Shown: positions 7,903 through 24,878, counted from the first letter of the stretch. The stretch is DNA of 64,000 bases from Candidatus Bathyarchaeia archaeon (GCA_049521795.1 JBEKOM010000002.1:224940-288939); one strand, 5' to 3'. A program made the numbers and translations. Notes: generated from the sequence alone by a model not told the origin.

Positions 7903-7959
7903 GCGCGCGCGCTGAGCAAGTGCATGTGAAGAATCGTTAGCTCTTCTAGAACGCGCGCG
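7903..7959. repeat. Pair of (GC)n palindromes (7903-7912, 7952-7959) flanking 39 bp
   Basis: GCGCGCGCGC and CGCGCGCG read directly. Confidence 0.9.
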
Positions 7960-7967
7960 GATGCGAG

Positions 7968-9380
7968 TCATGGGAAGTGTTGTAGGAAGTGGTTTCCCAG
8001 TATTATCGCGTCTAAGATGTTTACGACGTTGTCGCCGTTGATGTCTGCGTTCGGGTTCCAGTTTGAACTGCTCGGGTTGGAGAGAAAGGCGTTGCCAAGT
8101 TGTATGGCATCCAAAATGTTGACTATGCCGTCGCCGTTGACGTCGCCGGGGATTGTGACTGATACGTACGTGCTGGAATTTTTGTCGGCTGTGTTTATGT
8201 CGTACGGCAATGGAGTGACGTGGGCTAGTAACGTGTAGTTGCCGTAGCTCAGGGTTGAGGTGTTCCATGGGAAGGTCAGGGTTTCGCTGCCTCCGCTGAT
8301 CAAGGCTGTTGTTTGTGTGTCGACGAGGTTTGTGCCGCTTACGTTGCTCACGCTGTAGTATAGCGTTACGTTGAACGTTTCTGTGTCTTGGCCATTGTTT
8401 TTGAGGGACACGGAGACGTTTATTCCACCCAGCGAGTATTCTATCGGTACTGAGGTTCTGTAGGGGCTAACACCGGTTGCGGCTATGTCTCTTGTGCCAA
8501 CGTAGACGCTGAGGCTGATGTTCTTGTCGGATAGGTCCGTTTCGCCCGGAACCAGTGTTGCTGTGGCGTTCAGTGTATACTCTCCTATGGGCATGGATGT
8601 GGTGTCCCACGCATAATATAGGGTTTGACTTCCTCCTGCTGCCAGGTTTAAGACTGTTTGTGTTCCGATGGGGTTGCTATCGTCGAGTAGGGTCACGTCG
8701 AAGGTTTCTGAGACTCCGCCTCTGTTCTCAGCGGTCACGTTGATGTAAGCCATCGAGCCTTGGGGAATGTTTATCGGAGTTGCCAAGTCGCTTACGGTCA
8801 CGTGAACGAGTCCTGCGTAGGCCCAGCCGTCGACCGATGTGAAGGAGATCTCGTTCGGCGGGTGAGCTGAATCTAGGAGCTGGATACCATCCAGGTGCAG
8901 GGTTGAGCCTCCGCTGCCTACGACCACGAAGTCGATGGATGCTACGCTTCCGCTTCCGCTTACTCCTGTCACGTTTTGTCCAATAATGAAACGAGCATCA
9001 GCCAAGAGTATTACGCCGCACGTATCGTTGTAGTTGTTTGTGAAGTTGGCCACGACGAAGAATGTGCTGACCCCTTCCTCTTGGAGGAAGGGCCCTTCAG
9101 TCGCGTTAGCCTCTAGCGTTATTCCGTCGGATCCTAAATGCGTGCCCAAGTTTAGAACTGCCTTTTGAAAGAATAGGCTGAATTGCCAACCCCTCAGGTC
9201 GGTCACGTTTGAAACCGTTACGTTCACCGTGAAGGCGTCGCCGATGTGTAGGCCAGCGACGGCGCCAGGCTCAAAGCCAACCATCGTCGTCGGTGACTGA
9301 AGCCCTGTTCCTTGGCGGAGAGGAAGCAAAAATGATAAGAATATTGTAACGAGTACTACAAGAACGACCTTATTCCACAT
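7968..9380 (-). CDS. Secreted cohesin + 2x CARDB + dockerin protein
   Basis: FTVNVTVSNVTDLRGWQFSL...GSGSVASIDF (cohesin); NVTAENRG..ETFDVTL (CARDB); duplicated GDVNGDGIVNILD / ADINGDNVVNILD (dockerin); start ATG 9380 after GAGGAG. Confidence 0.85.
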   Translation of the reverse strand: MWNKVVLVVLVTIFLSFLLPLRQGTGLQSPTTMVGFEPGAVAGLHIGDAFTVNVTVSNVTDLRGWQFSLFFQKAVLNLGTHLGSDGITLEANATEGPFLQEEGVSTFFVVANFTNNYNDTCGVILLADARFIIGQNVTGVSGSGSVASIDFVVVGSGGSTLHLDGIQLLDSAHPPNEISFTSVDGWAYAGLVHVTVSDLATPINIPQGSMAYINVTAENRGGVSETFDVTLLDDSNPIGTQTVLNLAAGGSQTLYYAWDTTSMPIGEYTLNATATLVPGETDLSDKNISLSVYVGTRDIAATGVSPYRTSVPIEYSLGGINVSVSLKNNGQDTETFNVTLYYSVSNVSGTNLVDTQTTALISGGSETLTFPWNTSTLSYGNYTLLAHVTPLPYDINTADKNSSTYVSVTIPGDVNGDGIVNILDAIQLGNAFLSNPSSSNWNPNADINGDNVVNILDAIILGNHFLQHFP

Positions 9381-9424
9381 ACGCTCCCGTTCTCTCCTCA
9401 ATGCTAAATGTACTCTCTGCACAT

Positions 9425-9452
9425 TATTTAAACGCTGTGGAACTATCCTCTA
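9425..9452 (-). promoter_or_regulatory. Operator A plus TATA box
   Basis: TAGAG GATAG TTCCA CAG CG TTTAAATA on minus strand. Confidence 0.65.
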
Positions 9453-10045
9453 CAGTTTACTTCTCTTTTTCTTAAAATGATGACTAACAAAGTTGAGACT
9501 AAAAACAGTGGTAGAGCCAGGGCGACGGGAAACTCTGGAACCACGGTGACTTCACCGTCGGCTGAAGTGAGAGGGATTGAAGCTGGGGTTGGGTCGCTGA
9601 GTTTTACGTCGTAAAGGTGCAGGATTCTCGGTCCGGTCGTCGCCGTGGATTTGAACGTGGCTGTTGCCAGGGTTCCGCTTCCATTGACGCCCGGTGAGCT
9701 GGTTTCCATGGACAAGCAGACGACGTTTAAGAGGCCGTGTGTAGCGTTGTAGTTGTCTGTGAAGTTAGCCACTGCAAAGACCGTGGTGCCTCCCTTCTTG
9801 AGGAACGGCCCTTCGACCACTTTTGTTCCGTTGAGGACGTCGTTTGGGTAATACAACTTGAACTCGTAGGCATATAAGTTCTCGACGTTCTCAACTGTTA
9901 TGTTTAAGCTGAAGCTAGCGCCTACGTTCGGAACCGTCAGCGATGCTGGGACCACCTTAACCGTGGCCTGCTGCGCGGACGTTCGTGTCACAGTCAAACT
10001 TGCAAGTGCAAGTGCCATAAAAAGCAACAGCATTTTCCCCTTCAA
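9443..10045 (-). CDS. Single-cohesin protein with PEF-CTERM anchor (anchoring scaffoldin-like)
   Basis: FSLNITVENVENLYAYEFKL...GSGTLATATF; C-terminal VPEFP + TM + RKR. Confidence 0.85.
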   Translation of the reverse strand: MKGKMLLLFMALALASLTVTRTSAQQATVKVVPASLTVPNVGASFSLNITVENVENLYAYEFKLYYPNDVLNGTKVVEGPFLKKGGTTVFAVANFTDNYNATHGLLNVVCLSMETSSPGVNGSGTLATATFKSTATTGPRILHLYDVKLSDPTPASIPLTSADGEVTVVPEFPVALALPLFLVSTLLVIILRKREVNCRG

Positions 10046-10212
10046 GTGTTGTCAACCCTTAACGCTTACAAATGTTCTCGTCACCCAAATAAACTTCGCG
10101 TTCCCCATCTGATTTTCAACATGAAAGAGCGATGATCAATATTTAGTTTCTGTGGGTTTTAAACAAAAAAAAGGAGGTTCGTGACTCTGCTAGTCACTAC
10201 AGCTTCTGCTTT

Positions 10213-11610
10213 CTACGGATCTTTGAAGTTCTTCGCGACAGCGACGATGTCGAAGATGTCTACGTTGGCGCCGTTATATGGCGCGGTGTCATAAAACACG
10301 TGCCAGGGCACTGCGTTCCCGTATTGGTCTATTATCAGCATTAGGTCTTTGATGTCAATCGTGCCGTCTTCGTTAAGGTCGTATTTCTTCGGGTTGAAGA
10401 AGTTGCGCATGTCACACGAGTATATCAATGGGAATGTAGATACATAGGCTGGCACGATACCGTTAGCGAGGACGTCTACGTAGTTGTATTGGACAACAAG
10501 TGGATAGTAGTCCGCATATTCTAGGAGCCAAGCCTCGCCTACGCTTATTGAGGTGTTCGCTACGGTTGGAAGACCTAAGGGTAAGTCGGGTGAAATCACG
10601 GTTAAGTCAATTTCGAACGCTTCTGTCTTTGTGCTGCAGATCAATGGTTTGTCTGGCGGCAGTGGTCTAATCACAGTAACATTAACATAGTCAAGCGTCC
10701 CGATTTCTCCGAACACTACGTTCTCGTAGAAGTAGTTCGCTAGTATCCAGTCTGGACCTATCCTCACGTGCTGTATGTCCGTCTCCTTGTATCTCGAGTC
10801 CCAGACGAGCTGGATCATGAATCCGAACGCGTGTGTGATGTCGGACAGGTACACTTTGATCGTGTGCACCACGCCGACGGCTCTTTCAGTCACGACGTAT
10901 ATCGGTGTTCCTGTAGAGTTGTCAAGTATTTGATCGCTGGCGAATAGGTGTATGTCCGACTGTTTTGAGTAGAGGTAGTAGTTGCCATTGTCAATTTCCG
11001 GGGTTAGGGCAACTGGAACTGTTCCGTCTCCGCTCATTGAAACGGAGTGAAGCTCGAACGTTGAATGGAATACGTCGTTGTAAACGGGTTCGTTGTCAAT
11101 GTGGAACGTCAGTGTCACTAGCGAAATGTTGTTGGCCACCAGAATGCCGTGGTCCGGGTACACGTCTGTCGCTGCGAAGTGGAAACCATGCTTGTTCATT
11201 GCCTGAAGCAGGGTGTCCTGGTATACGACTTGCCAGCCTGTTGGAAGATGAGTCGTGATGCCCACGAGGGTTATGTAGCTTGTAGTGTTCGCGGCCCAAT
11301 CGAGGGTGAAGTCGAAAGCGTATACGTCGACCCCGGTTGTGGCGTTGTTGTTCCAGAGTCTCACGTCAACGGGGAAGTTGGTGCTTACCACGCAGGGACC
11401 ATAAACTTTCATGTCACTGGTGAAATTGAGATCACCTGAATGGGAACCAGTCCCGTTGTAGGCTTGCCCAGTGTTGTTCATGTCGACGAACAGAATTGGG
11501 TTACCTTGTGGTGGTGGTGGCGGTATTGGCCAGTCAGCGCGTACAATCGATGTGGCTGCTACAAGTGGCAGTAGAAGCAGAAGAGCAAATATCAATGCTT
11601 TATATTTCAT
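10213..11610 (-). CDS. Secreted protein with two divergent cohesin-like domains and C-terminal dockerin-like domain
   Basis: DVYAFDFTLDW, HAFGFMIQLVWD; YDLNEDGTIDIKDL...VDIFDIVAVAKNF. Confidence 0.75.
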   Translation of the reverse strand: MKYKALIFALLLLLPLVAATSIVRADWPIPPPPPQGNPILFVDMNNTGQAYNGTGSHSGDLNFTSDMKVYGPCVVSTNFPVDVRLWNNNATTGVDVYAFDFTLDWAANTTSYITLVGITTHLPTGWQVVYQDTLLQAMNKHGFHFAATDVYPDHGILVANNISLVTLTFHIDNEPVYNDVFHSTFELHSVSMSGDGTVPVALTPEIDNGNYYLYSKQSDIHLFASDQILDNSTGTPIYVVTERAVGVVHTIKVYLSDITHAFGFMIQLVWDSRYKETDIQHVRIGPDWILANYFYENVVFGEIGTLDYVNVTVIRPLPPDKPLICSTKTEAFEIDLTVISPDLPLGLPTVANTSISVGEAWLLEYADYYPLVVQYNYVDVLANGIVPAYVSTFPLIYSCDMRNFFNPKKYDLNEDGTIDIKDLMLIIDQYGNAVPWHVFYDTAPYNGANVDIFDIVAVAKNFKDP

Positions 11611-11668
11611 ATAGTCCTTTCTCCTTCTCCTTTTGCTTATTCAGCAAGTTAGTTAACCACTTTCTAAC

Positions 11669-11696
11669 TATTTAAGCTTAATGGAAATAAGTTCTA
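11669..11696 (-). promoter_or_regulatory. Operator A plus TATA box
   Basis: TAGAA CTTAT TTCCA TTA AG CTTAAATA on minus strand. Confidence 0.65.
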
Positions 11697-11799
11697 TATT
11701 GGTTAACTAAGCTTAGAACAGTGCGCCACTCACTTGCTTCTATGAAAAACCAGGGTTTAACGTAAGTACATGTTGAGTGTAGAGGGTTGTTCCCAGAGA

Positions 11800-11998
11800 G
11801 CGCGCGCTTCGGAACTGCTTTGTTTATACAGTTCTATGTAGCCGCAGCCAACGCAATAGAAGACTTTAATGTAGTCGCGCGCGCAACTAGCAAAACCTTG
11901 AAGCTTCTCGTCTTGTTTTCATGTAGCTGATGATTGGATTGGCAAAGGTGCGCCCAACCCATAAATACTAATTGATTTAGGGACAAGCCAGCGCGCGC
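11800..11998. repeat. Three (GC)n palindromes (11800-11807, 11876-11884, 11991-11998) separating short unique segments
   Basis: Read directly; inserts of 68 and 106 bp. Confidence 0.9.
11808..11875 (-). pseudogene. C-terminal fragment of a small Zn-ribbon protein
   Basis: Translates DYIKVFYCVGCGYIELYKQ (CxxCGYIELY); bounded by GC runs, no start codon. Confidence 0.6.
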
Positions 11999-12030
11999 CA
12001 TATGCGACGTATAAGCGTGAACGGATGGGG

Positions 12031-12384
12031 CTAAGACGGCGAAGATGAAGGGATGTAACCGTCTGTCCATACCACAGCGTAGTCGACCTTGAAGCTTGGA
12101 TTACCTTCCTGTCCATAGACATATTCGGGACATGTCCAGGAACTCTGAGCTATGCCGCTACCGTAAACAACAGAACCATTATTGTACATATCGTAATATA
12201 TGGCACGAAAAGCGTAGCCTGACGGTGGTGGATTGCCGTCCCAAGCAAGATAAGTCTGTCCTGGATATATCCTCTTTGAATAAGACACGTCCCTTGGCGG
12301 GATTATGAAATGAATCACTACTGCCACTGTGACAGTCACTGCTAGAATCACCGCTACGATTTTACCAACCTTGCGCTCTTTCAT
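12031..12384 (-). CDS. Small membrane-anchored hypothetical protein
   Basis: Basic N-terminus plus TM, Tyr-rich extracellular part. Confidence 0.7.
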   Translation of the reverse strand: MKERKVGKIVAVILAVTVTVAVVIHFIIPPRDVSYSKRIYPGQTYLAWDGNPPPSGYAFRAIYYDMYNNGSVVYGSGIAQSSWTCPEYVYGQEGNPSFKVDYAVVWTDGYIPSSSPS

Positions 12385-12686
12385 CTATTCACTTGAGACT
12401 AGGCGGCAGGCTGTACTATAAATGTGTTCTGCCAGCTCAACAGGCCTACGCGAAGCAGCTCCCAGCGAAGAACCGTCCCCGTCATTCGTTACCCTGCAAG
12501 ACCGATGAAAAGGGTCAAGGACCTCTTCAAAGTTGACAGGAAATTCAGAAGTCACGGACGCTCAGAACTCAAAAGGGCGTGAAGAGCGCACGCCAGCTCA
12601 AGCCGCCCTGAACACTCGCAAACCAGGCTACCCAAGAAGCACCGTAGTCGTAATGTCGTTTAAAACAGAAAAAGGGGATTGTGGAT

Positions 12687-12798
12687 TTACCAGCGTTTCC
12701 TCAACAAACGGCGTGACCCGGCTGCAGCTGCTGCAAGGGCTATTACTAGCAAGGCCAGTGCAACCCATGGAGTGATGACCTGCACGGTGGTTATCGGA
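12687..12798 (-). pseudogene. Orphan C-terminal membrane anchor paralogous to that of 13660..15339
   Basis: APITTVQVITPWVALALL...RRLLRKRW vs APINTLMLLAPWIALG...RRLLKKHW; homology stops at the GC run 12799-12808. Confidence 0.75.
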
Positions 12799-12808
12799 GC
12801 GCGCGCGC

Positions 12809-13307
12809 CTGTCTGGAACACCCTAGGGATGTTATCGGTAACGAAAATGTGCGGAGGGTTTTCGAAAAGGCGGCAGCAGAACCATTCCAAGACGAGGTGG
12901 ATGAGAAGTTGGCTGTATGCCTATCCAGAGCTCTAACTCACCTTGGAGATTCTGCCCAGCATAGTATAGAACGGAAATGGATGTCAGGAAAGCTTCTCCC
13001 GATCCTCTTGAATAATATGAAGAACAGAGACGAGAAAGCTAACGTGTGGTCCATGAAAGAAGCCGTGAAGACAGCAGGTCTGAGCGAGGAATTAAGATTT
13101 CAGGTCAGAAATAAGCTGCTTGAGTTTTGGTTTTCAAAAAAAGTCAAAGCGGACGATAAAGTTGGTACCGAGGTTTGCAAGCAATTGTCGCGTCTCACCT
13201 CAGAAGGCTTGTTTGAGACGGTTAGGGCAAGAATGAAGAGCAAAGATAAAGGGGTCGAAGCGAAAGCTGAACTTCTTCTGAGGGAACTAGGGAAATGTCT
13301 GCTCTAA
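12809..13307 (+). pseudogene. Probable 5'-truncated alpha-helical (HEAT-like) protein
   Basis: Frame is open from the GC run through GTG 12849 to stop 13307; no clear RBS or promoter. Confidence 0.5.
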
Positions 13308-13659
13308 GCTTTAATGAGTAATCAGCATGCGCGCTGAAAAAGCAAGTGATCGAGAGACAGCTTCAGACTTCCAAAAATAGTATATATACTATCTTGATTG
13401 ACATAGGACGTTATTCGAAATCTCTACGTGCTTGGAGAGTAGTACATGAATTGATTCGTTGGACCCCCTCCCACCCCTCTGGTAAAGATGTACGCCAGAA
13501 CTGCTGACAGTGCAAGCTCAAAATCCTAGATAGACTCACAATTCTCCAATTTGAGATTTAGAACAAAAAGGAGGAAGAGGTTAATTTGATTAGCGTGCGC
13601 ACGCACGAGAGCAGCCCTGCTCGGGCGATAAACTTGATAGAAAAAAAGGGATATGAGTT

Positions 13660-15339
13660 TTACCAGTGCTTCTTGAGCAAGCGTCGGTACATGGCGACTG
13701 CAGAGGCCGCGGCAATGAGTCCTAGAGCAATCCATGGAGCCAGTAGCATAAGCGTGTTTATTGGAGCCAGAGTCTGCATTGGGATCGGAGCCCATTCTCC
13801 ACCGACCTTTGAGTTCCACTTCCAAGTCACTGAGGAAGCTGTGGTTATCGTGAAACTCACGCTGTTCCCTCCTCCAGAAGCAGGCGCACTTCCAGTTCCA
13901 GTCCAGCCGATGCTCGAGTAGATGTTGCTACCCACGAGCACAGGAGATGTAACGGAAGACGTCACTAGAGTATTAGGGGCGTACCAGCCCGCTCCAGTCG
14001 GTGTGTCGTAAGGCGATGTTACAGTCAAGAGGAACTGCTCATTCCAGAAGAACTGTATGGTGTGAGGTGCGTTTACAGCCGTGAATTTGTAGCTGGTTCC
14101 AGCAGTGAGAGCTCCACCATCGATCTTGTAGCCTGTGCATACCCACTCGTGACCGGCTGAAACAACGTCCGGACTTGTAACAGAAGCAGTGAAGTCAGTG
14201 CCATCGTCAACCCATGCTGAAGCAGTGTATGGCGCGCCATGAGCGCTGTTAACCGTTATGTACCATTGAGTCTTCCACTGTGCAATCGCTTCTTTAGCCT
14301 TGTCCATTGTTATCGGGTTGCTTTGCAAATAGTTTGTTCCTGAGGCATCCCAAGTCCAAGTGGTGAAGACGTGTTGTTTTCCAACGCCATCTGGAACTGT
14401 TCCAGACGTCAGGCCAGCGTAAGCAGTTGTGCCGTCACCGTACCAGCCCGCGCCAGTAGTAGTACCGTAAGCAGAAGTGACTTTCAAGTAGTAGTTGGTC
14501 GACCCAGTCGCCTGAACACTGTTCCAAGTGATAGTGCCACCGCCGGCGCCAGCACCCCAGTTGCCAACGAATACAAAGGGCTTCACGTTAGTCCAATCAA
14601 AGGTCGGGGCACCTGGGATAACAAAGACGCTTCCCGGAGGAAATGTTGGAAGCCACACCATAGCTGGATAGGAAAATGGATCAGTTGTCGCGTAGACCCG
14701 AATCAATGGAGTGAAGAGGACATCGCCACTTGCCAAGTAGTGGAACGTCAGTTGCATGTCGAAAGTGTCGTAGAGTGGGTTCCCGGTGCAGTGGACTCCA
14801 CCTAATGGCGCGATGACCCCTAGATAGGGGGTGTTGAAGCCTTGTCCGAGAATATTCCCATCCCATGGCGTGCTCTTGTTTTCGTACAAGTTGCTTGCTG
14901 CATCAGTGTATGCCGTCTGTGTTAGGTAATAATCTGAACCAATGGGTCCTCCACCTCCAGCGACGAGAAGGCTAGAGAATGCGGAAGATGATGGATTAAT
15001 CCAAGGCGACCCAAAAGCCGTTTGTTGCGTCACTCCAACCTGTATCCCCGCCACTTCGAGCGGAGCTGGCCATCCAGCGTAGACACCGGGACCAGGTGTG
15101 GGAAACCTGCTCTGTGTCATGTCAATGCCATAAACAGTCACTACCAAGTCTGCCTTTGTAACATCGAAACTCACATGTGTGTCATCGTAGATGGTGCCTG
15201 AACCACCATCCCATGCTCCAAGTCCTGTTGTAACAGAACCACCCGGAAAAACAACAGTGATAGCATGTGCTGCTGGTATAGCTATTACAGCAAATAACAT
15301 TAGGGACAATAGAACGATAGGAACAATTGTCTTTTTCAC
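13660..15339 (-). CDS. Cell-surface protein with GxGWY beta-sandwich repeats and VGG...LLAPW membrane anchor
   Basis: Signal peptide; repeats homologous to those of 5967..7571; C-terminal TM with basic tail. Confidence 0.82.
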   Translation of the reverse strand: MKKTIVPIVLLSLMLFAVIAIPAAHAITVVFPGGSVTTGLGAWDGGSGTIYDDTHVSFDVTKADLVVTVYGIDMTQSRFPTPGPGVYAGWPAPLEVAGIQVGVTQQTAFGSPWINPSSSAFSSLLVAGGGGPIGSDYYLTQTAYTDAASNLYENKSTPWDGNILGQGFNTPYLGVIAPLGGVHCTGNPLYDTFDMQLTFHYLASGDVLFTPLIRVYATTDPFSYPAMVWLPTFPPGSVFVIPGAPTFDWTNVKPFVFVGNWGAGAGGGTITWNSVQATGSTNYYLKVTSAYGTTTGAGWYGDGTTAYAGLTSGTVPDGVGKQHVFTTWTWDASGTNYLQSNPITMDKAKEAIAQWKTQWYITVNSAHGAPYTASAWVDDGTDFTASVTSPDVVSAGHEWVCTGYKIDGGALTAGTSYKFTAVNAPHTIQFFWNEQFLLTVTSPYDTPTGAGWYAPNTLVTSSVTSPVLVGSNIYSSIGWTGTGSAPASGGGNSVSFTITTASSVTWKWNSKVGGEWAPIPMQTLAPINTLMLLAPWIALGLIAAASAVAMYRRLLKKHW

Positions 15340-15403
15340 TTTCTCCCTTTCTCCTTTTATTTAACTATTACCCTTTCGGGTAAACTAAACTTACGGTTTC
15401 TAA

Positions 15404-15431
15404 TATTTAACGTTTATGGAACGCTCTTCTA
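15404..15431 (-). promoter_or_regulatory. Operator A plus TATA box
   Basis: TAGAA GAGCG TTCCA TAA AC GTTAAATA on minus strand. Confidence 0.65.
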
Positions 15432-15630
15432 TAGCCGCTCGGTATCTACGTGAGCAAGGCTTATCAAATGCAAAAAAAAGCGCGCGCGAGACAACGCAAA
15501 AAGCCCTTGTTGCCCATGAGCGTGCCGCTGAATCATGAAGACTAGAACCAGAAGAAAGGATAGGCCTAAATCAGTGTACGCATCTTTCTTCCAATAGAAG
15601 TGAATAGCACGGGAAACGAAGGCTTCTTCA

Positions 15631-16578
15631 GTGAAAAGCGGAAAGACACATAGGACGGAGAAATCCAGAAAGCGCCTGCTTAGGAAGAGAGTTTCCTACG
15701 TCTTCGCCGCCATGGTCGCACTCATACTTGTCGGCGTGCTTGCATACACCTTTCTGAGCCCCAGAAGCCCAACCATCAATGACAGCACTCCGAAGATCGC
15801 CATAGTCGACCAGCTTAGCGCCCAGTGGCCTGACCCAGAGTTCAACCAGACAGTCCAGGGCATCTTGAACCAAACAGGCCTCAAAGTCGACTACTACCCA
15901 AGCCAAGACGTCACCGTTGATTTCTACCGAAACCTACCATCGCAAAATTACAAACTCATAATCTTCAGGGTTCACTCAACAGCTGAAACGGGCGCTAAAG
16001 ACATGCCGCCATGGGTAGTTTTCTTCACATCAGAAAACTACAGCGGCACAGCCCACGTCTCGGAGCAATCGGACATGCGAGTCGTGTACGTCAAATTCCC
16101 CGATGTTGCGCAGTTGTACTTCGGCATAACCCCAACGTTCGTGGAGAACTCAACGGAAGGAAAATTCAACGACACAACGATAATAGCCATGGGCTGCGAC
16201 GGCTTGAATAAGACCAGCATGGCTGAGGCTTTCATTGAAAAGGGAGCAAAAGCCTACATAAGCTGGAACGGGTTCGTATCAGCAGACCACACGGACGAGG
16301 CGACAGAGTGCCTGCTCCGCCATCTCGTCACGGAAAACCAAACCGTTGAAGAGGCCGTGAAGGAAACCATGAACGAGGTGGGCCCCGACCCGACAGACAA
16401 AAGCGTACTGATGTTCTACCCAGACAACGCTGGGCCGAGTTTTCTCCTCCTCAGCGCAGCCACGGCCGCTCCAACAGTCATGGCCACTCCTGCAGTCAGC
16501 GCGCCCGGTCTCGTCAACGCAACTGTCGCCACCCCGACAGTTAGGACAGCAAGGAAGAACACCAACCAAAAAGACTGA
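15631..16578 (+). CDS. Membrane-anchored protein, possible caspase/gingipain-like fold
   Basis: N-terminal TM; IIFRVHS and IIAMGC resemble a His/Cys dyad; MAEAFIEKGAKAYISW. Confidence 0.65.
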   Translation: MKSGKTHRTEKSRKRLLRKRVSYVFAAMVALILVGVLAYTFLSPRSPTINDSTPKIAIVDQLSAQWPDPEFNQTVQGILNQTGLKVDYYPSQDVTVDFYRNLPSQNYKLIIFRVHSTAETGAKDMPPWVVFFTSENYSGTAHVSEQSDMRVVYVKFPDVAQLYFGITPTFVENSTEGKFNDTTIIAMGCDGLNKTSMAEAFIEKGAKAYISWNGFVSADHTDEATECLLRHLVTENQTVEEAVKETMNEVGPDPTDKSVLMFYPDNAGPSFLLLSAATAAPTVMATPAVSAPGLVNATVATPTVRTARKNTNQKD

Positions 16579-16600
16579 AACTCGCGCGCGCTAGTTGAAA

Positions 16601-16628: not shown

Positions 16629-16654
16629 GTCTTTTCTGATTCATACTTGAAAAG

Positions 16655-19339
16655 ATGCGTTCAGAACAGATGATAGGTAGTAGAATCTTGAAACGCGCAG
16701 CAAGCATATTTGTCATGGTAATAATAGTGTTTGCCAGTCTGTCAACGCCGTTCGCTCGGTCCGAACAGACAATGACAAGCCGTAGCCTGGGAATTAGGCC
16801 CCAACTGGAACGTAAAGACACGTACATGCTGGATCTCCAATACCCCTTATCTGGACCGGACGCCTGGGACATACCACATAATAACACAAGCTCGGACGAC
16901 GAAATCCGTGGTATGAAGGCAGTGGCATCCATGATAGCCTCGTACTATGGTGGAAACCTGAGTCAAGACCGCATTGCATACTACGTGTACTACGATTATC
17001 TCCGCTACCCGTCTCCGGAAGACGACCTCGGCGATGGATCTGGCATTATCCAAGGTATTAACATCCTTGACATACTTCACTGGGAGTTAAACGGGGCCTT
17101 ATTCACCCGTTTCATGGACGCGAGACCCGGTTTTTCCGAGATAGAGTACTGGATAGATTCCAACATTCCGATCATCGTAGACCAAGGAGGCAACAACCAC
17201 CTCCTAGCGATAATCGACGGCTACGACACAAACGGTGAGATGGTTTATGTCCTTGACCCCTTATTAGGAAATGAAACCAAGATCCCATACGATAGCTTGA
17301 GCATATTTGTCGTGTGGATTGTCACGGGCGACCATATAACGGCCCGGTCGGATGAACCTACGATTTGGATGGATTCCGACGGTGACGGAGTGGTCGACTT
17401 TGACGAGATCAACAGATTTCATACCGACCCTTACAATAACGACACATATGGTCTCGGAATAAGCGACAAGACGTGGATAGAACTCACCTATATGGGTAAA
17501 CTCACCTATCCGACAGCGACGTTCACATGTTCCCCAGAAACGCCGTTAATCAATGAACAAATAACGTTCGATGCCTCAAAAAGCATCGGAAACATAACGG
17601 CATACAAATGGAATTTCGGAGACAACAACGCGACTACGACAGCGGCACCAACGACAACCCATGCTTATGCCCAGCCGGAAACCTACAACGTGACTCTGAC
17701 AGTGGATGATAGCAACGGTCTTTGGAACACTACCACATTCTCGGTGACCGTGGGCGAGAGTGAAACTCAGAGCGGGAGTGAGTATGTTTCCGAAGCGGCC
17801 TTCTACCGACAGTCTCTTGACCGAAAGGGGTATGCGCCCACGGAAGGCCCTGAAACGCCCGATCTCCTCTGGACAACGTACCTTAATGATTCGGTGACAA
17901 CGTCACCTGTAGTGGCTGACGGAAAAGTTTTCATTGGTACCTCAGGTGGAAAGTTCTACGCGTTAGACGCAACCAGCGGCGGGATCATCTGGACATTTGA
18001 TGCCGGAAGCCCTGTTTCCTCATCGCCAGCTTTCCAGAACGGAGTGGTTTTTTTCGGCACCGAAAACCCTGGAAACATATACGCTCTTGACGCATCCACC
18101 GGCCTTCCTATCTGGCAATACCAAGTTGGCACGACGGCTGCACTGCCCTCTTCCCCTGGAGTTATCGACAACAAGGTCATTATGGGTACCTCTGATGGCA
18201 AACTTCTCTGCCTAAACGAATCGGAAGGCCAGTTACTGTGGAATACTCAGCTGGGCGCAGGACCTCTTTCCTCACCGGCTATACAGAACGGCACGATCTT
18301 TATCACGTCAACCCTAGGGGTTGACGCAGTTGACTTGCAGACCGGAACATCTATTTGGGAATTTGCAACAAGCTGGCCAGTCACTTCAACCCCCGCGGTT
18401 GCCGACGGCCTGGTCCTTGTTGGAACCGAAAACAATGACCACGTATACGCTCTAGACCAGAGCACCGGAAGTCCCGTATGGAACTATTTCACAAGCGGCT
18501 GGCTCACTTCACCAGCGGTGGACACCTCTGCACAGCTCGTGATCGTTGGATCGAAAGACTACAAGCTCTATGCCTTTAATGAGCAAACAGGCCTTCTCGA
18601 ATGGAGGTACTTTAACGGCCCAAACTACCTAACAGCATCAGCAATAAGCGCGAACGGGTTGGTGTACGTAGGAACCTTTGACGGAAACCTGCATTGCGTC
18701 AACGAGACCACTGGCGAGGAAATCTGGAACTACAGCGTGACTGCACCAATAGTTTCTTCACCAACCATCATTTATGAGCACGTTTTGGTGGGAGCGCAGG
18801 ATGGGAGCATTTACTGTTTCGGCCCGCCCTTTATAGTCCACAAAATCGCAGTTTCAAACCTAATCGAGTCCAGTTCTGAGGTGGGACAAGGATACAGCTT
18901 GAACGTGAACGTAACCGCCGAGAATCAGGGCGATTCTTTGGAAACCTTCAACGTGACACTCTACGCAAACGGAACCGCAATCAAAACAGAGCAGATAGTC
19001 CTGATGAACTCAAGCTTTACAACCATAACCTTTGAATGGAACACCACAGGCTTTGCCTATGGCAACTACACGATAAGCGCCTATGCAACGCCGGTTCCAG
19101 GCGAAACAAACACGACAGACAACACACTAGTCGGCGGCTTGATAGTCGTGACCATCCCAGGAGACATAAACGGCGACGCCACTGTGAACATCCTCGACGC
19201 AATAGCGCTGGCCAACTCCTTCAACAGCCACCCAGGCGATCCAAACTGGAACCCCAACGCAGACATAAACAGTGATGGCGTCGTAAACATCTTAGACGCT
19301 ATAATACTGGCAAACCACTTCTTAGAACACTACCTATAA
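16655..19339 (+). CDS. Secreted multidomain protein: C39-like peptidase domain, PKD, PQQ-like beta-propeller, CARDB, dockerin
   Basis: SMIASYYGGNLSQDRI; YKWNFGD; repeated YALDAxTGxxxW; PGDINGDATVNILD / ADINSDGVVNILD. Confidence 0.85.
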   Translation: MRSEQMIGSRILKRAASIFVMVIIVFASLSTPFARSEQTMTSRSLGIRPQLERKDTYMLDLQYPLSGPDAWDIPHNNTSSDDEIRGMKAVASMIASYYGGNLSQDRIAYYVYYDYLRYPSPEDDLGDGSGIIQGINILDILHWELNGALFTRFMDARPGFSEIEYWIDSNIPIIVDQGGNNHLLAIIDGYDTNGEMVYVLDPLLGNETKIPYDSLSIFVVWIVTGDHITARSDEPTIWMDSDGDGVVDFDEINRFHTDPYNNDTYGLGISDKTWIELTYMGKLTYPTATFTCSPETPLINEQITFDASKSIGNITAYKWNFGDNNATTTAAPTTTHAYAQPETYNVTLTVDDSNGLWNTTTFSVTVGESETQSGSEYVSEAAFYRQSLDRKGYAPTEGPETPDLLWTTYLNDSVTTSPVVADGKVFIGTSGGKFYALDATSGGIIWTFDAGSPVSSSPAFQNGVVFFGTENPGNIYALDASTGLPIWQYQVGTTAALPSSPGVIDNKVIMGTSDGKLLCLNESEGQLLWNTQLGAGPLSSPAIQNGTIFITSTLGVDAVDLQTGTSIWEFATSWPVTSTPAVADGLVLVGTENNDHVYALDQSTGSPVWNYFTSGWLTSPAVDTSAQLVIVGSKDYKLYAFNEQTGLLEWRYFNGPNYLTASAISANGLVYVGTFDGNLHCVNETTGEEIWNYSVTAPIVSSPTIIYEHVLVGAQDGSIYCFGPPFIVHKIAVSNLIESSSEVGQGYSLNVNVTAENQGDSLETFNVTLYANGTAIKTEQIVLMNSSFTTITFEWNTTGFAYGNYTISAYATPVPGETNTTDNTLVGGLIVVTIPGDINGDATVNILDAIALANSFNSHPGDPNWNPNADINSDGVVNILDAIILANHFLEHYL

Positions 19340-19356
19340 TCCTCATGGTCTGTTAC

Positions 19357-19534
19357 AAGGAGAAAGGAGAATACTGTCAATATTGATAATCGATGTTTTG
19401 TGTTTGTTAATGTTCTCTGCCCTTGCGTCTCAAGTAAAGGCGAAACAGACTACACTCTTTCAGGACCATCTTGAAAGCCTCGCGGTGAGCACTTTGAGCG
19501 CGCCGGCAACGGTCTTCGTGGATCCTGCGCGCGC
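19357..19534 (+). pseudogene. Chimeric remnant: RBS plus signal peptide start joined to a cohesin N-terminal scrap
   Basis: AAGGAGAAAGGAGA; LCLLMFSALASQVKA...TLFQDHLES; GC run; PATVFVDP; GC run. Confidence 0.55.
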
Positions 19535-19786
19535 TAGTTCATATTCGTTGTGTAGATGTCTTCTATAGGAATTCTCTAGAATGCAAAATTCATGAAAGCT
19601 GTACTGATGCTCACTTGAAGATGGAGAATGAAACACCGCGCAAACCATAAAAAAGGTCATTGCGCGCCGGAGGCACTACGGAGAAAGGAGAAAGGACTAC
19701 CCTGTAGTATCACCAGTCGCGCTCTGTCTTCTATAATAAACATCTACGATATTTAAAACTCCTCAATCTTTACGATGCAATCAGCA

Positions 19787-19822
19787 TTAACCATAAGGGA
19801 AACAACTTAACGATCAGGTAAA
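19787..19822. promoter_or_regulatory. Tandem operator B sites (TTAACC-N4-GGTTAA type)
   Basis: TTAACC ATAA GGGAAA and TTAACG ATCA GGTAAA just upstream of a TATA-like TATTTAAC. Confidence 0.5.
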
Positions 19823-19850
19823 TATTTAACTACCAAAACATTAAAATCAT

Positions 19851-20417
19851 TTGAGCTTAGACTATCTGAGGGTGCCCAAGCTGAGTAGCCCAAAGTCAGA
19901 AGTCGATTCCTGGAGGGTCTTGCGCGTCTTTGCTAATGAAGTTAGAGTGGCAGTGGTGAGATTGTTGGCACAATTTGAATGGAGATCTCTATCAGAGATT
20001 GCTGAAAAACTAGAAAGTGATTATGGTTGGAAAATGACGTTGCCAGGACTGCTCAAACACATGAAAGAATTGGAAGATGCTGGAATAGTGCACCATGAGT
20101 CCGGCGTCTTCGCGAAAGTGTCGGACGCGAGAAAAACCATCTACACATTGCAAGGAAAAGAAAGAGTTGAGAAAATACTGAAACAACTGGAGGACAACGT
20201 AGCAAATCCATTAGAAGCCGGACTGATATTCAGCGAAACCGCTAAACTGGCGCGTGAAGTTGAAGGTGTAGGAGCGACGGTGACCACAGAAGGACAAAGA
20301 CATCTTGAATCCTTACTTGCTAAATGTGAATCACAAAAAATCTCCGGCTATCTCACAGAAGACGAGAAGAAGAAAGTGAAGCTCTGGAGAATGATGCTGA
20401 AGATTATGAAAGAATGA
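19851..20417 (+). CDS. Winged-helix (ArsR-like) transcription regulator (start may be GTG 19872)
   Basis: FANEVRVAVVRLL...LSEIAEKL...LLKHMKELEDAGIV. Confidence 0.8.
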   Translation: MSLDYLRVPKLSSPKSEVDSWRVLRVFANEVRVAVVRLLAQFEWRSLSEIAEKLESDYGWKMTLPGLLKHMKELEDAGIVHHESGVFAKVSDARKTIYTLQGKERVEKILKQLEDNVANPLEAGLIFSETAKLAREVEGVGATVTTEGQRHLESLLAKCESQKISGYLTEDEKKKVKLWRMMLKIMKE

Positions 20418-20433
20418 TAGCGCGCGTAGATGC

Positions 20434-21296: not shown

Positions 21297-21299
21297 GGT

Positions 21300-23147
21300 T
21301 TAACTTTTCTCGTCCTTTTCCTTCTTTTCAAAGCTTCCAATAACGTCCTGCAAAGTGTCTCGCGGCTGAATCTTGATACCATATTTCTTCTCGAATTCTC
21401 TGATTTTCAGGTCACGCCTCTCAACATCAGTCTCGAAAAGTGCTTGCGCAACCACAAGAGGGTTGAACGCCTGGAGAAGTCGCCTCTGCTCAACAATCTT
21501 TCGACGGTATTTGATGGTAAACACTCCTAGAACAGCCTCAACTAACACCATCCCGGCTATCCCCCAGAACCACCACTGAGACCATACGGACATTCCTGGA
21601 GACACAACAGACGCTACTGTTACCTCATGTTCCCCGTGGAGACTTGTGAAGTAGACCCACGTGTGCGTTCCGTTTGTGCTAATCACACTGTATGAAACCG
21701 AAGCATGGTCCACCGTGACTGCGAACGGAGGCGCGATCAGTACACTAGGGATTAGGATGCGGGAGAAACCCTTGTTCCCGGTCGCATTAACGTTGAAGCT
21801 TAACGTGCCAGTTTTGTTGTCTGGACTACGATTGTACTGCAATCCTGAAATCGTAGAATTGCTGATAACAGCAACAATGCAAGATTGGTTTTCGATGTCG
21901 ATGCTAAACTGCAAATACTGGCCCATCAGAGGATAGCTATCCTGGCTGTACACTCCCAGCCACCCTCTATCATCGACGATGTATGGCTTGTCTCCGATCC
22001 CGCTCGTATGCGTGTCAGCACCACCGTAGTCTCCCCAGAAGTTGCCTTGGGCGCCATCATCCCAGAAATTACCGAAAGAATCGTTGCTCGGTTGTTCGAC
22101 GTTCCTAATCAAGTTGTCAATGAAGTTGTTGTCAAAAAACCTGTTATTGCTGGAATTCCAGAGGCGAACTCCAAACTGATCGTTTGCCGAGATGTTGTTG
22201 CCTGAAATTCCGTTCCCGCCGGAATTGATGAACCATATTCCAAAAGTGTTATTGGAGACGTCGTCACCATTGAAGGCGTTGTCCGCAGAATCAAAGAGAA
22301 GTATTCCATACTCGTTGTTAAAAGATGCCGTGCTATCATCGAGGGTGTTGCCGCCAGAACCGTAAAAGTATATTCCGTACCCGTTCCTTGAAAAGTCGTT
22401 GCTTTGAAGAGTGTTGTTGAAAGAATACTGGAGCCCAATTCCGCGGCCTTGGTTTGAGACGACAAGGTTGCCCGAAAGGGTGTTGTTGCTCGAACCGTAT
22501 GAATATATCCCGTTCCAGCCGCTCGATGAAACATTGTTATCTGCAAGAACGTTATTTCTAGAAACGTCAAGATGAATTCCGTTCATGTTACCTGAGGCAA
22601 CGTTATCCGAAACACTGATGTTGGCAGAACCGTAGAGGTGTACCCCATATTCGTTGCCTAAAACATCGTTGTCTTCAACAATGCTGTCGTTAGACCCATA
22701 CAAGTATATACCATTATAGTTGTCTTTCACGATGTTGCCGCTTATGTTGTTATCACTTGATTGGTACACTTGTATGCCACTGTAACCAAACATGCTGTTT
22801 CGTACAGTCAAACCTGTGACACTGACGTTGTCAGCCGTTATTCGAATAACGCTGCCCAATGCACGACCGTCAATAATAGTGCTGAGCACATTATCCCCTA
22901 TAAGGGACACCGACTTGTTCACTACAACGTTTTCATAGTACGTTCCCGAATTCACTCGAATCGTGTGTCCACTCAAAGTTGCATCAGCATCTATGGCCTC
23001 CTGAATCGTCGCATACCCCAGCCCTGTATCAATGTTAAGAACTGGCAACGTGGTTTCTGCCAGCACATTGAAAGACATTGCAGCGGTCAAGAGCGAGGCC
23101 AATAGTAAAACAAGAATAGCGGTGAGAAGAGCTCTGCCCAATTTCAT
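21300..23147 (-). CDS. NosD/CASH right-handed beta-helix surface protein with C-terminal TM and cytoplasmic tail
   Basis: YATIQEAIDA, GTYYENVVVNKS, many GIxLxxSxNN repeats, GNFWGDYGG, DSYPLMG. Confidence 0.85.
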   Translation of the reverse strand: MKLGRALLTAILVLLLASLLTAAMSFNVLAETTLPVLNIDTGLGYATIQEAIDADATLSGHTIRVNSGTYYENVVVNKSVSLIGDNVLSTIIDGRALGSVIRITADNVSVTGLTVRNSMFGYSGIQVYQSSDNNISGNIVKDNYNGIYLYGSNDSIVEDNDVLGNEYGVHLYGSANISVSDNVASGNMNGIHLDVSRNNVLADNNVSSSGWNGIYSYGSSNNTLSGNLVVSNQGRGIGLQYSFNNTLQSNDFSRNGYGIYFYGSGGNTLDDSTASFNNEYGILLFDSADNAFNGDDVSNNTFGIWFINSGGNGISGNNISANDQFGVRLWNSSNNRFFDNNFIDNLIRNVEQPSNDSFGNFWDDGAQGNFWGDYGGADTHTSGIGDKPYIVDDRGWLGVYSQDSYPLMGQYLQFSIDIENQSCIVAVISNSTISGLQYNRSPDNKTGTLSFNVNATGNKGFSRILIPSVLIAPPFAVTVDHASVSYSVISTNGTHTWVYFTSLHGEHEVTVASVVSPGMSVWSQWWFWGIAGMVLVEAVLGVFTIKYRRKIVEQRRLLQAFNPLVVAQALFETDVERRDLKIREFEKKYGIKIQPRDTLQDVIGSFEKKEKDEKS

Positions 23148-23283
23148 CCCAGTACAATATATTGTTAAGATGAAGCGACTTCTTTTATGCGTATTGGTAG
23201 CGCGCGCTGGTAGCAAACTGAAACCTGGTATCTAAGACCAGAACAGGTAAATACGAGGGTCACCATAATTAAATTGATCCGCT

Positions 23284-24360
23284 TTGAGAAACGGAAAGGC
23301 AAGTTTGCTTGCTCTAATAATTCTAGCGTTATTTGTGGGTATATATCCACTAGGTAAAGCGACGCCCGGAACCGTAGTGGCCGTTGATCCAACGGCAAGC
23401 ACAGTCAAATTGGGACAGACCTTTGGAATCAATATCAACATTACCGATGTTACAGGGCTTCTGGGGTTTGACTTCCAGCTGTCGTATGACGCTACTGTTT
23501 TGAAGCTCGTAGACATTCAGCAAGGGTCCTTCCTGAAGAGCGTCGGATCCACTCTCGTAATCAATCTCACAACCAATGGGGTCATTTGGTTGGCTGTGGC
23601 TGTCTACAGCCCTCAACCGCTGTCATCGGCCAATGGAAGCGGCGTTCTCGCCACAGCAACCTTTAAAGCGGTAGCGGCAGGCGAATCCTTGCTAGACTTA
23701 TATTCTAAAGACCCCTACACGCCAGACGAAGTTAAACTTGTAAGCGATCCTCCGCCAGACAGCGTGGCAGCGATTCCCAATGTGGCCGCCGACGGACACG
23801 TATTCGTTTCGTCTGATCCCGCAGACCCACCAGACCCACCGCCAAACCCTCCGCCGCCAACAACCCCTGCGCTGACAGCGCACGCGCTTGCTCCCAAAAC
23901 TGTTGTCGGACAAGGCTACAAGCTACCCATAAGTGTAACGACCGCGAATCAGGGAGACCTCACCGAGACCTTCAGCGTCGCCAGTTACGCAAACACTGCT
24001 GAAATAGGAGAACAAACCCTAACCCTGTCAAATGGAAGCTCCACCACCGTCTCTTTTGTCTGGAACACTAATGGCTTTGCTTACGGCAACTACTCCGTAA
24101 CTGCTCAGGCTTTCGTTCCAGGGCAAACGAGCACGGCTAGCGACACTGTCGTTGATGCCTTCGTGATCGTAACAATTCCAGGTGATCTTAGCGGTGACTT
24201 CAAGGTTAACATAAGCGATGCCATTCTGCTATCATCGGCCTTCAATTCTAAACCGGGCAGCTCACACTGGAACCCCAACGCAGACATAAACGGCGACGGC
24301 GTCGTAAACATCCTTGACTCCATAATACTGGCAAACCACTTCCTCGAACACTACCCTTAA
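23284..24360 (+). CDS. Secreted cohesin + Pro linker + CARDB + dockerin protein
   Basis: FGININITDVTGLLGFDFQLSYD...GSGVLATATF; PPDPPPNPPPP; PGDLSGDFKVNISD / ADINGDGVVNILD. Confidence 0.87.
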   Translation: MRNGKASLLALIILALFVGIYPLGKATPGTVVAVDPTASTVKLGQTFGININITDVTGLLGFDFQLSYDATVLKLVDIQQGSFLKSVGSTLVINLTTNGVIWLAVAVYSPQPLSSANGSGVLATATFKAVAAGESLLDLYSKDPYTPDEVKLVSDPPPDSVAAIPNVAADGHVFVSSDPADPPDPPPNPPPPTTPALTAHALAPKTVVGQGYKLPISVTTANQGDLTETFSVASYANTAEIGEQTLTLSNGSSTTVSFVWNTNGFAYGNYSVTAQAFVPGQTSTASDTVVDAFVIVTIPGDLSGDFKVNISDAILLSSAFNSKPGSSHWNPNADINGDGVVNILDSIILANHFLEHYP

Positions 24361-24562
24361 CCCCGCGTTTCTCGGCGACACTCCGCGGTTTCTGACCAAA
24401 GCGACAATGCGTAAATAAGTAGGCTATTCGCGCGCGCTCGTAAGAGACGCTGTGAGAAGATTCTTGGAGCGGTATGGTTATTACCCGGGAATCAAGCGGA
24501 GGTCGAACACAGTTGAAACTTGTGCACCAACACTAGGATTCGACAACGATCCGTAGCTACTA

Positions 24563-24878
24563 GTGCGCTAGCGTGTTTCTGAATTCTTTGGGGAAGTGGC
24601 TTGTGCGGCTCATTCTGCTCCCTAACCATATTTGGCTCCAAATATGCATGATACATTGAAACCGAGGAGGGGTACCAGACGCCGCCCCACGTTCATGCGC
24701 ATGTAAAGAAGACTCTGCTGCGTCGCGGACAAATACAACGTTGGGTCATATAGCATACCCGGGGGGAGGGTGTGAGTGTGAGCACGCAAACACCCAGTCC
24801 GAACCATGACAGTAACCATCGACCATCGGAAAACGCTATGCCTGCTCTTGAACGGAATTCAGGAACAAGCATGCGCGC
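24563..24878. mobile_element. MITE-like element copy A (316 bp, imperfect 24-bp terminal inverted repeats ending in GCGCGC)
   Basis: GTGCGCTAGCGTGTTTCTGAATTC ... GAATTCAGGAACAAGCATGCGCGC (19/24 match); homologous in reverse to 51237-51443. Confidence 0.65.

Follow-up and report, generated by a model that had tools for sequence, protein, structure and literature searches.

Alternating GC runs created at rearrangement joints form a lineage-wide signature in a Candidatus Bathyarchaeia genome

A 64,000-nucleotide stretch of the genome of a Candidatus Bathyarchaeia archaeon (G000 C2:224940-288939, hereafter the window) contains, between positions 7903 and 24878, an island of surface-protein genes punctuated by short alternating GC runs. 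The initial annotation of the window had proposed that these runs are the joining core of an integron-like system assembling surface-gene cassettes. We find instead that they are a lineage-wide signature created at the joints of rearrangements, and not the att sites of an integron specific to the island. The runs lie at breakpoints of homology with related genomes, originate de novo at deletions, arrive together with insertions, evolve nearly neutrally and border modules that have been reshuffled. The reading that we favour, self-complementary scars of break-and-join events later reused as microhomology, is in our judgement an even call. The genome is a metagenome assembly of 2,439,145 bp in 69 contigs. 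Its genes were called as greedy longest open reading frames (ORFs) of at least 80 aa with no gene finder, a crude procedure that gave 2487 ORFs over 84.9% of the genome and left about 15% as intergenic.

Runs at the ends of homology

G001, a sister genome available as a single 2.35-Mb contig, was compared with G000 by blastn, retaining high-scoring segment pairs (HSPs) of at least 300 bp. These span 62% of G000, averaging 89% identity, and take in 46% of its intergenic and 65% of its ORF sequence. Among the 389 runs of at least 8 bp in G000, 317 (81%) fall in unaligned DNA, which is 38% of the genome, 57 in aligned DNA and 15 on an edge. The same is seen from the other side, where 351 of 455 runs of G001 lie in the unaligned 37% of that genome, 70 in aligned DNA and 34 on an edge. 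Within the intergenic DNA of G000, the conserved part (46%) has 43 runs and the variable part (54%) has 239, an approximately 5-fold lower density in conserved sequence.

Runs are sharply concentrated at synteny and homology breakpoints. A run of at least 8 bp stands at offset 0 in 4.1% of the 1859 G000/G001 homology ends, compared with 0.3-0.9% at 20-300 bp outward and 0.02-0.1% inward. Similarly, (GC)4 occurs within -8 to +10 bp of 164 of the 1859 ends and at +50 to +68 of only 41, while four control word pairs are flat (5/2, 1/2, 2/2 and 11/12, near/offset). In addition, a run of at least 6 bp marks the joint in 35 of 106 simple indels between the two genomes, and in 19 of them the run reaches at least 8 bp.

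Direction of change

A third genome, G002, allowed some of these events to be polarised. Pairwise distances (G002-G001 92.7% over 112 kb, G002-G000 90.2% over 98 kb, G000-G001 89.2%) give the tree ((G001,G002),G000), in which G000 is the outgroup, G002 being nearer to G001. In twelve simple indels a run is found in the short allele only; six of them were polarised with G002, three are ambiguous owing to tree position, one falls on a contig break and two were not tested. In all six polarised cases the deletion is derived, belongs to G001 and shows a new (GC)n where the ends were joined, the long allele being common to G000 and G002, and none of those polarised goes in the opposite direction:

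C3:137111, derived G001 deletion of 634 bp
C3:142652, derived G001 deletion of 295 bp
C2:141251, derived G001 deletion of 499 bp
C2:162986, derived G001 deletion of 1645 bp
C6:82333, derived G001 deletion of 2935 bp
C8:13546, derived G001 deletion of 1132 bp

Base-level alignment of two of the deletions places the cuts within genes, with no run at either boundary of the long allele. A partial GC word (GCGC, GCACGCG) is present at the left break of the long alleles at C2:141251 and C6:82333, and the base before the new run is A in all six deletions. Since neither end of the ancestral long allele had a run in any of the six, no pre-existing pair of sites was recombined, and cutting and religation of existing GCGC sites, one of the mechanisms initially envisaged, does not hold: the run was gained de novo each time.

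Insertions, conversely, can bring runs with them. A 13.4-kb insertion specific to G001 begins with GCGCGCGCG at a site that is empty and run-free in both G000 and G002. Another, of 13.1 kb, carries runs at distances of 6 bp and 25 bp from its ends, and a 204-bp miniature inverted-repeat transposable element (MITE) has GCGCGC at both ends; the sites of both are again run-free in G000 and G002. Two further insertions found only in G001 (1750 bp and 1912 bp) are located within or next to a run common to G000 and G001 (8 bp in G000); there the G002 allele matches G000 by length alone, its sequence not having been read. A 3.6-kb segment located right after a tRNA 3' end (G000 C10:30362-33953), a classical tRNA-adjacent integration spot, is found in G000 and G001 and is absent from G002, where the joint has no run.

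Reshuffled modules

Runs of at least 7 bp number 16 in each of the two 13-kb insertions. That of 13.4 kb is a mosaic in which some pieces match G000 C4:120128-125643 in a different order, one of them inverted, and others match C1 and C2; of its 34 HSP ends, 7 come within 15 bp of a run, where 1.3 are expected, and one of its modules has a run on either side. For the 13.1-kb insertion the figures are 2 of 12 HSP ends (0.5 expected), with one module bounded on both sides. The idea of integron-like cassette assembly therefore survives in that run-bounded modules are reordered and inverted in the sister genome, and fails in that the tests gave no integron-like site-specific system.

A dedicated site-specific recombinase acting on a (GC)n core and exchanging integron-like cassettes in either orientation appears quite improbable, although it would account for run-bounded modules that recur elsewhere and in other orientations in the sister, for an 8-bp run that became 6 + 8 bp around an inserted element, for different elements at one run-flanked site, and for a run in nearly every intergenic gap of islands. 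The six polarised deletions had no parental site, and the empty sites of derived insertions are often run-free. Moreover, only 8-10 bp are conserved, with no conserved flank and no better than under neutrality, and a length of 8-10 bp is too short for the known sites of tyrosine and serine recombinases. No recombinase turned up either, integrase families not having been searched.

Abundance, length and gene context

The word GCGCGCGC is the commonest 8-mer of the G000 genome, with 417 copies where a first-order model expects 34.5. There are also 217 copies of CGCGCGCG and 92 of AGCGCGCGCT, and the top 12-mer is TAGCGCGCGCTA with 17. The counts of maximal runs for lengths of 6 to 13 bp are 543, 198, 219, 107, 56, 3, 3 and 1 in G000, and for 6 to 11 bp 510, 186, 267, 130, 56 and 2 in G001. 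The excess is restricted to 8-10 bp, with 9-bp runs about 7-fold above expectation and a sharp stop after 10 bp, from 56 to 3 in G000 and from 56 to 2 in G001. Such a limit is not what slippage gives, and an origin as dinucleotide microsatellites, which predicts a geometric, open-ended tail of lengths, was rejected.

The usual context is (T)A-(GC)n-T(A), the preceding base being A in 57% and the following base T in 62% of G000 runs. The statement that flanks are not conserved thus holds overall, except for this recurrent A before and T after the run. The two flank bases are mutually independent, which fits ends that were made separately. Beyond this independent A/T preference, left and right flanks show no complementarity (138 observed and 126 expected at +/-1, 76 and 75 at +/-2), so an origin as P-nucleotides from hairpin opening was discarded. 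Paired runs have no preferred spacing that would mark them as stems of hairpins.

With respect to genes, 282 of the 389 G000 runs of at least 8 bp are intergenic, 8 lie on an edge and 99 are inside ORFs, an intergenic enrichment of about 16-fold. The genome-wide count called for by the initial annotation therefore gives enrichment both between genes and in accessory, unaligned DNA. Density is highest in convergent gaps (1.10/kb), followed by tandem (0.84/kb) and divergent ones (0.60/kb), and a run lies less than 10 bp from a stop in 26 cases. The distribution is patchy: 17-kb windows contain a mean of 2.3 runs, a median of 1 and a maximum of 23. The surface-protein island ranks at about the top 3%, with 11 runs in 7903-24878 and 9-10 in two sampled windows starting nearby. 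It is, however, not special in kind, as had been thought, the pattern being genome-wide and lineage-wide.

The preference for convergent gaps, the proximity of some runs to stops and the hyper-abundance of a palindrome, which recalls the HIP1 words of cyanobacteria (PMC5861425) and REP sequences, could also indicate selected cis elements, such as a protein-binding palindrome, Z-DNA or a 3'-end signal, found near breakpoints because of fragility or a shared intergenic location. We give this only a slim chance. No fixed distance of runs to starts or stops was found in G000, conserved intergenic DNA has the 5-fold lower density mentioned above, and runs are 4-fold fewer at the +50 to +68 control positions than at homology ends. 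Selected elements would also not be expected to appear de novo at deletion joints, in two cases inside genes.

Fate of the runs

Once made, the runs appear to be subject to little constraint. Among 34 runs well inside alignments, 14 are identical in G001, 0.34 being expected for an 8-mer from the 87.4% intergenic identity. Differences between the genomes include transitions, 2-bp slippage (two seen) and, in 7 of the 34, indels at the run. Intergenic copies comprise 305 perfect ones, 179 with one of six internal transitions and 198 with one of twelve internal transversions, so that single-mismatch decay products roughly equal the perfect copies in number. This ratio of perfect to variant copies would be roughly that of a neutral birth-and-decay process. 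With near-neutral conservation and decay the runs behave as scars and not as conserved sites, a further point against selected cis elements.

Distribution among relatives

All 10 other genomes of the genus that were searched contain 29-464 copies of GCGCGCGC, for example 359 in G009, 254 in G008, 128 in G005, 75 in G003 and 29 in G006. Eight other genera of the family have 0-14, and three further genera of the same family have 30-40 copies of AGCGCGCGCT. The absence of the runs from most genera of the family, which share the basic gene set, is again not expected of selected cis elements. In a class-wide sample of 301 genomes, AGCGCGCGCT is abundant in a few other families (94, 131, 42 and 65 copies in f35; 119, 106, 63 and 44 in f26; 83 in f36), and a reversed control word has 0-5 copies in the motif-rich lineages of this sample. 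Sixteen of the 301 genomes have at least 25 copies of AGCGCGCGCT and are called motif-rich below. G024, from another family of the order, has 53 matches to GCGCGCGC including (GC)6-7 arrays (e.g. C8:28423-28436 and C25:70055-70066) and no AGCGCGCGCT; its arrays look like ordinary microsatellites, unlike the runs capped at 8-10 bp.

The window and its surface-protein island

All 16 alternating GC runs initially listed for the island are present in the sequence, together with the two degenerate variants at 12586 (GCGCACGC) and 13593 (GCGTGCGCACGC), and the further runs reported in other accessory patches (45204, 51043, 53253, 62381, 63167 and 63660) also exist. The observation is borne out and exceeds chance by far: the window has 14 copies of GCGCGCGC where 100 dinucleotide-preserving shuffles give 0.90 +/- 1.07, none of them reaching 14. 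The main features are as follows:

1015-1022, (GC)4 run inside an OppC/DppC-type permease ORF (373-1737, minus strand, 454 aa)
7903-7912, (GC)5 run of 10 bp in the convergent gap between ORFs 7590-7853 (plus strand) and 7968-9422 (minus strand), spanned by contigs of other samples
7952-7959, (CG)4 run; the stop of the ORF for the dockerin/CARDB protein is 8 bp away
11800-11807, (GC)4 run, first of three runs in the 420-bp gap 11611-12030
11876-11884, 9-bp run
11991-11998, (GC)4 run of 8 bp
12799-12808, (GC)5 run of 10 bp
13329, 6-bp run
15480-15488, 9-bp run in a divergent intergenic region
16583-16591, 9-bp run, 4 bp past the stop of ORF 15631-16578
19527-19534, (GC)4 run in a gap that also holds 6-mers at 19498 and 19662
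20420-20426, 7-bp run filling the 16-bp convergent gap between an HTH_20 ORF and a ParA/MinD-like ORF
23200-23207, (GC)4 run at the 5' edge of a NosD/beta-helix ORF, in a divergent region
24429-24437, 9-bp run
24569-24872, MITE-A copy of 304 bp with terminal inverted repeats (TIRs) TAGCGTGTTTCTGAATTC ... GAATTCAGGAACAAGCAT, flanked by GCGC on the left and GCGCGC on the right
24873-24878, GCGCGC at the right terminus or flank of the MITE-A copy
45204-45209, GCGCGC closing the right side of a 113-115-bp segment that G001 lacks
about 51234-51447, second window copy of the MITE family
62381-62386, CGCGCG at the left edge of a replaced segment
63167-63174, TAGCGCGCGCTAG at the exact end of homology with G001; G002 has about 2.95 kb there

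Among the runs of at least 8 bp in the window, the permease run at 1015, initially reported in dppC, is alone in being placed well within a coding frame. Two 6-mers inside ORFs (14232 and 16499) had been overlooked. Eleven runs of at least 8 bp had been placed outside intact genes between 7903 and 24878; the number is right and 10 of them are intergenic, the exception being that at 23200, which lies 9-16 nt into the TTG-extended 5' end of ORF 21300-23216. The core block is free of such runs, none occurring between 24437 and 63167, where 6-mers are present at 33791 and 35523.

The island encodes cohesin, dockerin, CARDB, PKD, beta-propeller and NosD-type surface proteins, a helix-turn-helix protein and a ParA-like ATPase, and it adjoins an ATP-dependent DNA ligase gene. 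Type I cohesin and dockerin domains, together with CARDB, PKD and beta-propeller domains, are found in 7968-9422, 9443-10045, 16655-19339 and 23284-24360, and dockerin modules are multicopy across the genus. Such a set in an archaeon suggests a cellulosome-like surface scaffold. No tRNA genes were found in the window.

Alignment to G001 extends from 24913 on, starting at the ligase gene, and is broken at the runs at 45204, 62381 and 63167. The sequences of G000, G001 and G002 at the place of run 62381 are all different, and the right edge in G001 is GCGCGCGC. At the DNA level nothing in five congeners corresponds to the island except paralogous dockerin/cohesin modules and MITEs, so its own breakpoints cannot be mapped; its proteins give partial matches of 32-63% to G001. 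An 11-kb inversion relative to G001 (window 31471-42440) has a GC run at neither breakpoint in the window, hence not every rearrangement leaves the mark.

Given a genome in 69 contigs from a metagenome, chimeric joins made by assembly or library preparation might be suspected of producing the pattern, a prospect that we regard as negligible. A Logan contig of run X1, made with a different assembler and possibly from the source sample, covers 7001-20132 with 0 differences, and contigs from samples X2 and X3 span the runs at 7903/7952, 12799/13329, 15480, 20420 and 23200; because an independent contig is identical and other samples span runs, the window sequence is not a chimeric assembly. The single-contig sister has the same pattern, with 14 of 34 runs at the orthologous place in both genomes. 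The metagenomes holding the stretch (X1-X5) are labelled peat. As for the alternative junctions that reads were expected to reveal, contigs of other samples have none where they cover the runs. There is one loose end, a single low-depth X3 contig that matches the window to 11997 and continues into unrelated sequence.

MITEs and an IS5-family element

A repeat at 24561-24879 led to a family of MITEs with the structure [TA]GCGCGC-(TAGCG|ATGCT)TGTTCCTAAATTC ... GAATTTAGGAACA...-GCGCGC[T], about 190 bp long and present in 22 paired copies in G000 and G001. The two copies in the window are small, noncoding, multicopy and bounded by TIRs. The MITE-A copy is interrupted at 24639-24740 by about 100 bp of a second repeat, so that the elements are nested; other copies of the nested repeat are at C3:119386, C1:44196 and C10:11277. 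An autonomous partner with the same ends, 1068 bp long, is present at G001:389086-390153; it encodes DUF772 and DDE_Tnp_1 in two ORFs and thus belongs to the IS5 family, and open transposase frames of 329-341 aa are found in G004 and G009. One clean derived insertion suggests a target duplication of TA or A; other sites have 1, 2 and 6 bp of GC. A TIR-bounded 1750-bp element (G001:1559002-1560753) carries two non-transposase ORFs, one of 284 aa and one of 107 aa that is zinc-ribbon-like, and further TIR pairs enclose a cupin gene and PIN-domain genes, MITE-type ends mobilising cargo. Finally, G000 C1:586185-587297 and C1:93223-94356 each encode a transposase-like protein of 370 aa that has a SWIM-type zinc finger at its N terminus and looks IS6-like by eye; it was rejected as a source of runs, its copies being 68% alike with no MITE TIRs nearby.

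These elements are part of the traffic at the runs. The 22 paired MITE-A copies and the 1068-bp element end in GCGCGC, the derived 204-bp MITE brought GCGCGC at both ends to a run-free site, solo runs have the same A/T flanks as the MITEs have on their outer sides, one run-flanked site holds MITE-A in G001 and MITE-B in G000, and the 1750-bp cargo element entered an 8-bp run. Moreover, transposase homologues are weakly enriched in motif-rich genomes (6 of 16, and 42 of 301 overall, uncorrected for kinship), and IEE, an archaeo-eukaryotic primase (AEP) polymerase of Escherichia coli, promotes excision of insertion sequences (ISs) and microhomology-mediated end joining (MMEJ) according to PMC9943667. 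That the runs come wholly from IS5-family (DDE_Tnp_1) elements and MITEs inserting at TA, as excision footprints, targets or IS-mediated deletions, is nevertheless unlikely. TIR words number 22 in G000, 56 in G001, 71 in G002 and 13 in G004, and only 0-1 in G009, G008, G005, G003 and G006, which have many runs all the same, so excision footprints do not track the element family. No transposase homologue was found in G005, G008, G010 and G003, and in the class sample the same holds for 10 of the 16 motif-rich genomes, among them all four from f35. With near-neutral decay of the runs, the TIR-poor lineages need a current source. In G000 a TIR is present at only about 15 of 2248 run flanks, and the long alleles of the six polarised deletions contain no TIR element, which speaks against solo runs as excision footprints. 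Fused residual termini would give even lengths only, in contrast to the excess of 9-bp runs, and the T at -2 and A at +2 lack the co-occurrence predicted by a shared duplication. Transposon footprints or targets explain a minority of the data and fail on distribution. The suggested transposon link is thus real for some runs, with IS5-family MITEs and one IS ending in GCGCGC, but these elements are not the only source.

A proposed break-and-join origin and its candidate enzymes

In the break-and-join reading, an 8-10-bp GC tract would be written when two ends are joined, at deletions as well as at insertions of foreign or mobile DNA. 3' ends finishing in A might be extended by a short tail of alternating G/C, or by a unit-length oligonucleotide, through an activity of the primase-polymerase type; the tails would anneal as (GC)n self-pairs, and the joint would then be filled and ligated. 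The scars would persist nearly neutrally, for the most part in intergenic DNA where the genome turns over fast. As every scar is the same palindrome, scars could serve as dispersed, orientation-free microhomology through which bounded modules are deleted, inserted, inverted and reordered, and the surface-protein island of the window would be one such mosaic.

A primase-polymerase mechanism is conceivable from activities already described. In PMC12019639, archaeal PriSL is reported to anneal strands sharing as few as two GC pairs and to perform terminal transfer and MMEJ, and in PMC3898472, PolDom, the polymerase of non-homologous end joining (NHEJ), holds two 3' overhangs through four G:C pairs and adds G or C after realignment. 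The writing of a measured (GC)4-5 by such an enzyme would be an extrapolation from these activities. G000 itself possesses a complete bacterial-type NHEJ operon (C5:41155-44209) with the LigD Prim-Pol, Ku and a ligase fused to a 3'-phosphoesterase. Among 31 relatives, Ku is present in 8 of 11 genomes of the genus and 1 of 20 others, and Prim-Pol in 9 of 11 and 1 other, a good fit to the motif at this scale; the Prim-Pol frame is split in G001 and G005. Archaeal NHEJ is said to occur in "very few archaeal species" in PMC12019639, and Ku, in 89 of the 301 genomes of the class sample, is far commoner than this statement implies. The only match to a C5 methyltransferase in G000 (C6:18719-19702) lies in a 683-aa frame, about twice the usual length, that may be a fusion.

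Several points weigh against the break-and-join reading. None of the candidate writers follows the motif: Ku occurs in 4 of 16 motif-rich genomes and in 89 of all 301, the motif count is 0-3 in many genomes with Ku, and G016 combines the operon with 1 AGCGCGCGCT (7 GCGCGCGC), so Ku-dependent NHEJ was rejected. A PolX/TdT-like polymerase was likewise dismissed, G000 having no PolX palm and the family being found mostly in the motif-poor f24. Of the methyltransferases initially proposed for a search, C5 methylases (PF00145) gave no association either, being present in 2 of 16 motif-rich genomes and 39 of 301 overall. The replicative primase is universal in archaea and thus fails to explain a lineage-restricted motif. 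We know of no end-joining system that writes a constant palindromic filler. The A/T flanks are the outer context of the MITEs as well and so fit a transposon origin. Most simple indels were made without a run, 71 of the 106 having none of at least 6 bp. Finally, polarity is based on three genomes, a distance tree and parsimony, and recombination between lineages could mislead it. A literature search, with subscription journals and supplementary files outside its scope, found no report of this motif.

We also entertain, tentatively, a stronger form of the break-and-join reading, where the joining chemistry of some Bathyarchaeia-type lineages would write a fixed (GC)4-5 linker and the linkers would act as universal connectors usable in either orientation, in a sequence-tagged, recombinase-free exchange of cassettes. 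The modules exchanged might then possibly comprise surface proteins, toxin-antitoxin genes and IS elements, a suggestion that we hold with equal reserve. If scars they are, each (GC)4-5 run would record a past break-and-join event, so that structural events could be counted and dated from sequence, and hypervariable cohesin/dockerin islands could be read as stacks of tagged events. The runs would also offer a testable route into end joining in archaea, which mostly lack classical NHEJ, the motif predicting that G and C are added alternately, with a limit of 4-5 nt at each end. The decamer is spread patchily over several families, which provides natural replicates for phyletic profiling of the responsible gene. 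Were transposons the source, the runs would still be fixed footprints of unusual abundance, alongside an IS5-type element whose termini are GC palindromes.

Comparison with known systems

HIP1 (GCGATCGC) of cyanobacteria resembles the runs in being a lineage-specific 8-bp palindrome and the most over-represented word of its genome (PMC5861425); GCGCGCGC is likewise the top 8-mer of G000. HIP1 is under selection and common inside genes, a description drawn in part from the same source (PMC5861425). The runs differ in being about 16-fold enriched between genes, near-neutral, tied to breakpoints and without a link to a C5 methylase; the 14 of 34 identical copies do not point to selection of the HIP1 type.

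Repetitive extragenic palindromic (REP) sequences and the bacterial interspersed mosaic elements (BIMEs) that they form are also extragenic palindromes present in hundreds per genome, with a lineage-specific spread linked to RAYT transposases, which are Y1 transposases. REPs are imperfect hairpins of 20-40 nt with a conserved tetranucleotide, whereas the motif described here, at 8-10 bp, is too short to fold alone.

Known end-joining fillers are short and variable, unlike the constant, self-complementary 8-10-mer found here, and Ku does not track the motif. The likeness lies in the extra nucleotides at deletion joints and in the use of 2-4-bp G:C microhomology by AEP polymerases, as reported in PMC3898472 and PMC12019639. 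G000 has the NHEJ gene set, but across genomes the signature does not follow the pathway.

IS5-type elements (IS427/ISL2-like) and their MITEs offer a further parallel, with TIR elements of 120-300 bp, a DDE_Tnp_1 partner and insertion by TA or A, and footprints of terminal nucleotides are known for transposons such as Tc1/mariner and PIF/Harbinger. The element is, however, confined to a sub-clade, whereas the runs are genus-wide and extend beyond the genus.

Finally, the island resembles an integron in its arrays of units of one to three genes separated by a recurrent palindromic mark and reordered elsewhere. Integron attC sites are imperfect inverted repeats of about 57-141 bp (60-140) with conserved core sites at the cassette ends; here no attC-like structure is present, and only the 8-10-bp run plus A/T are shared between unrelated flanks. 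Island ORFs are in mixed orientation, with no integrase among those scanned, genome-wide integrase families not having been searched. Unlike integron cassettes, which recombine at sites already present, the marks described here arose de novo in all six polarised deletions.

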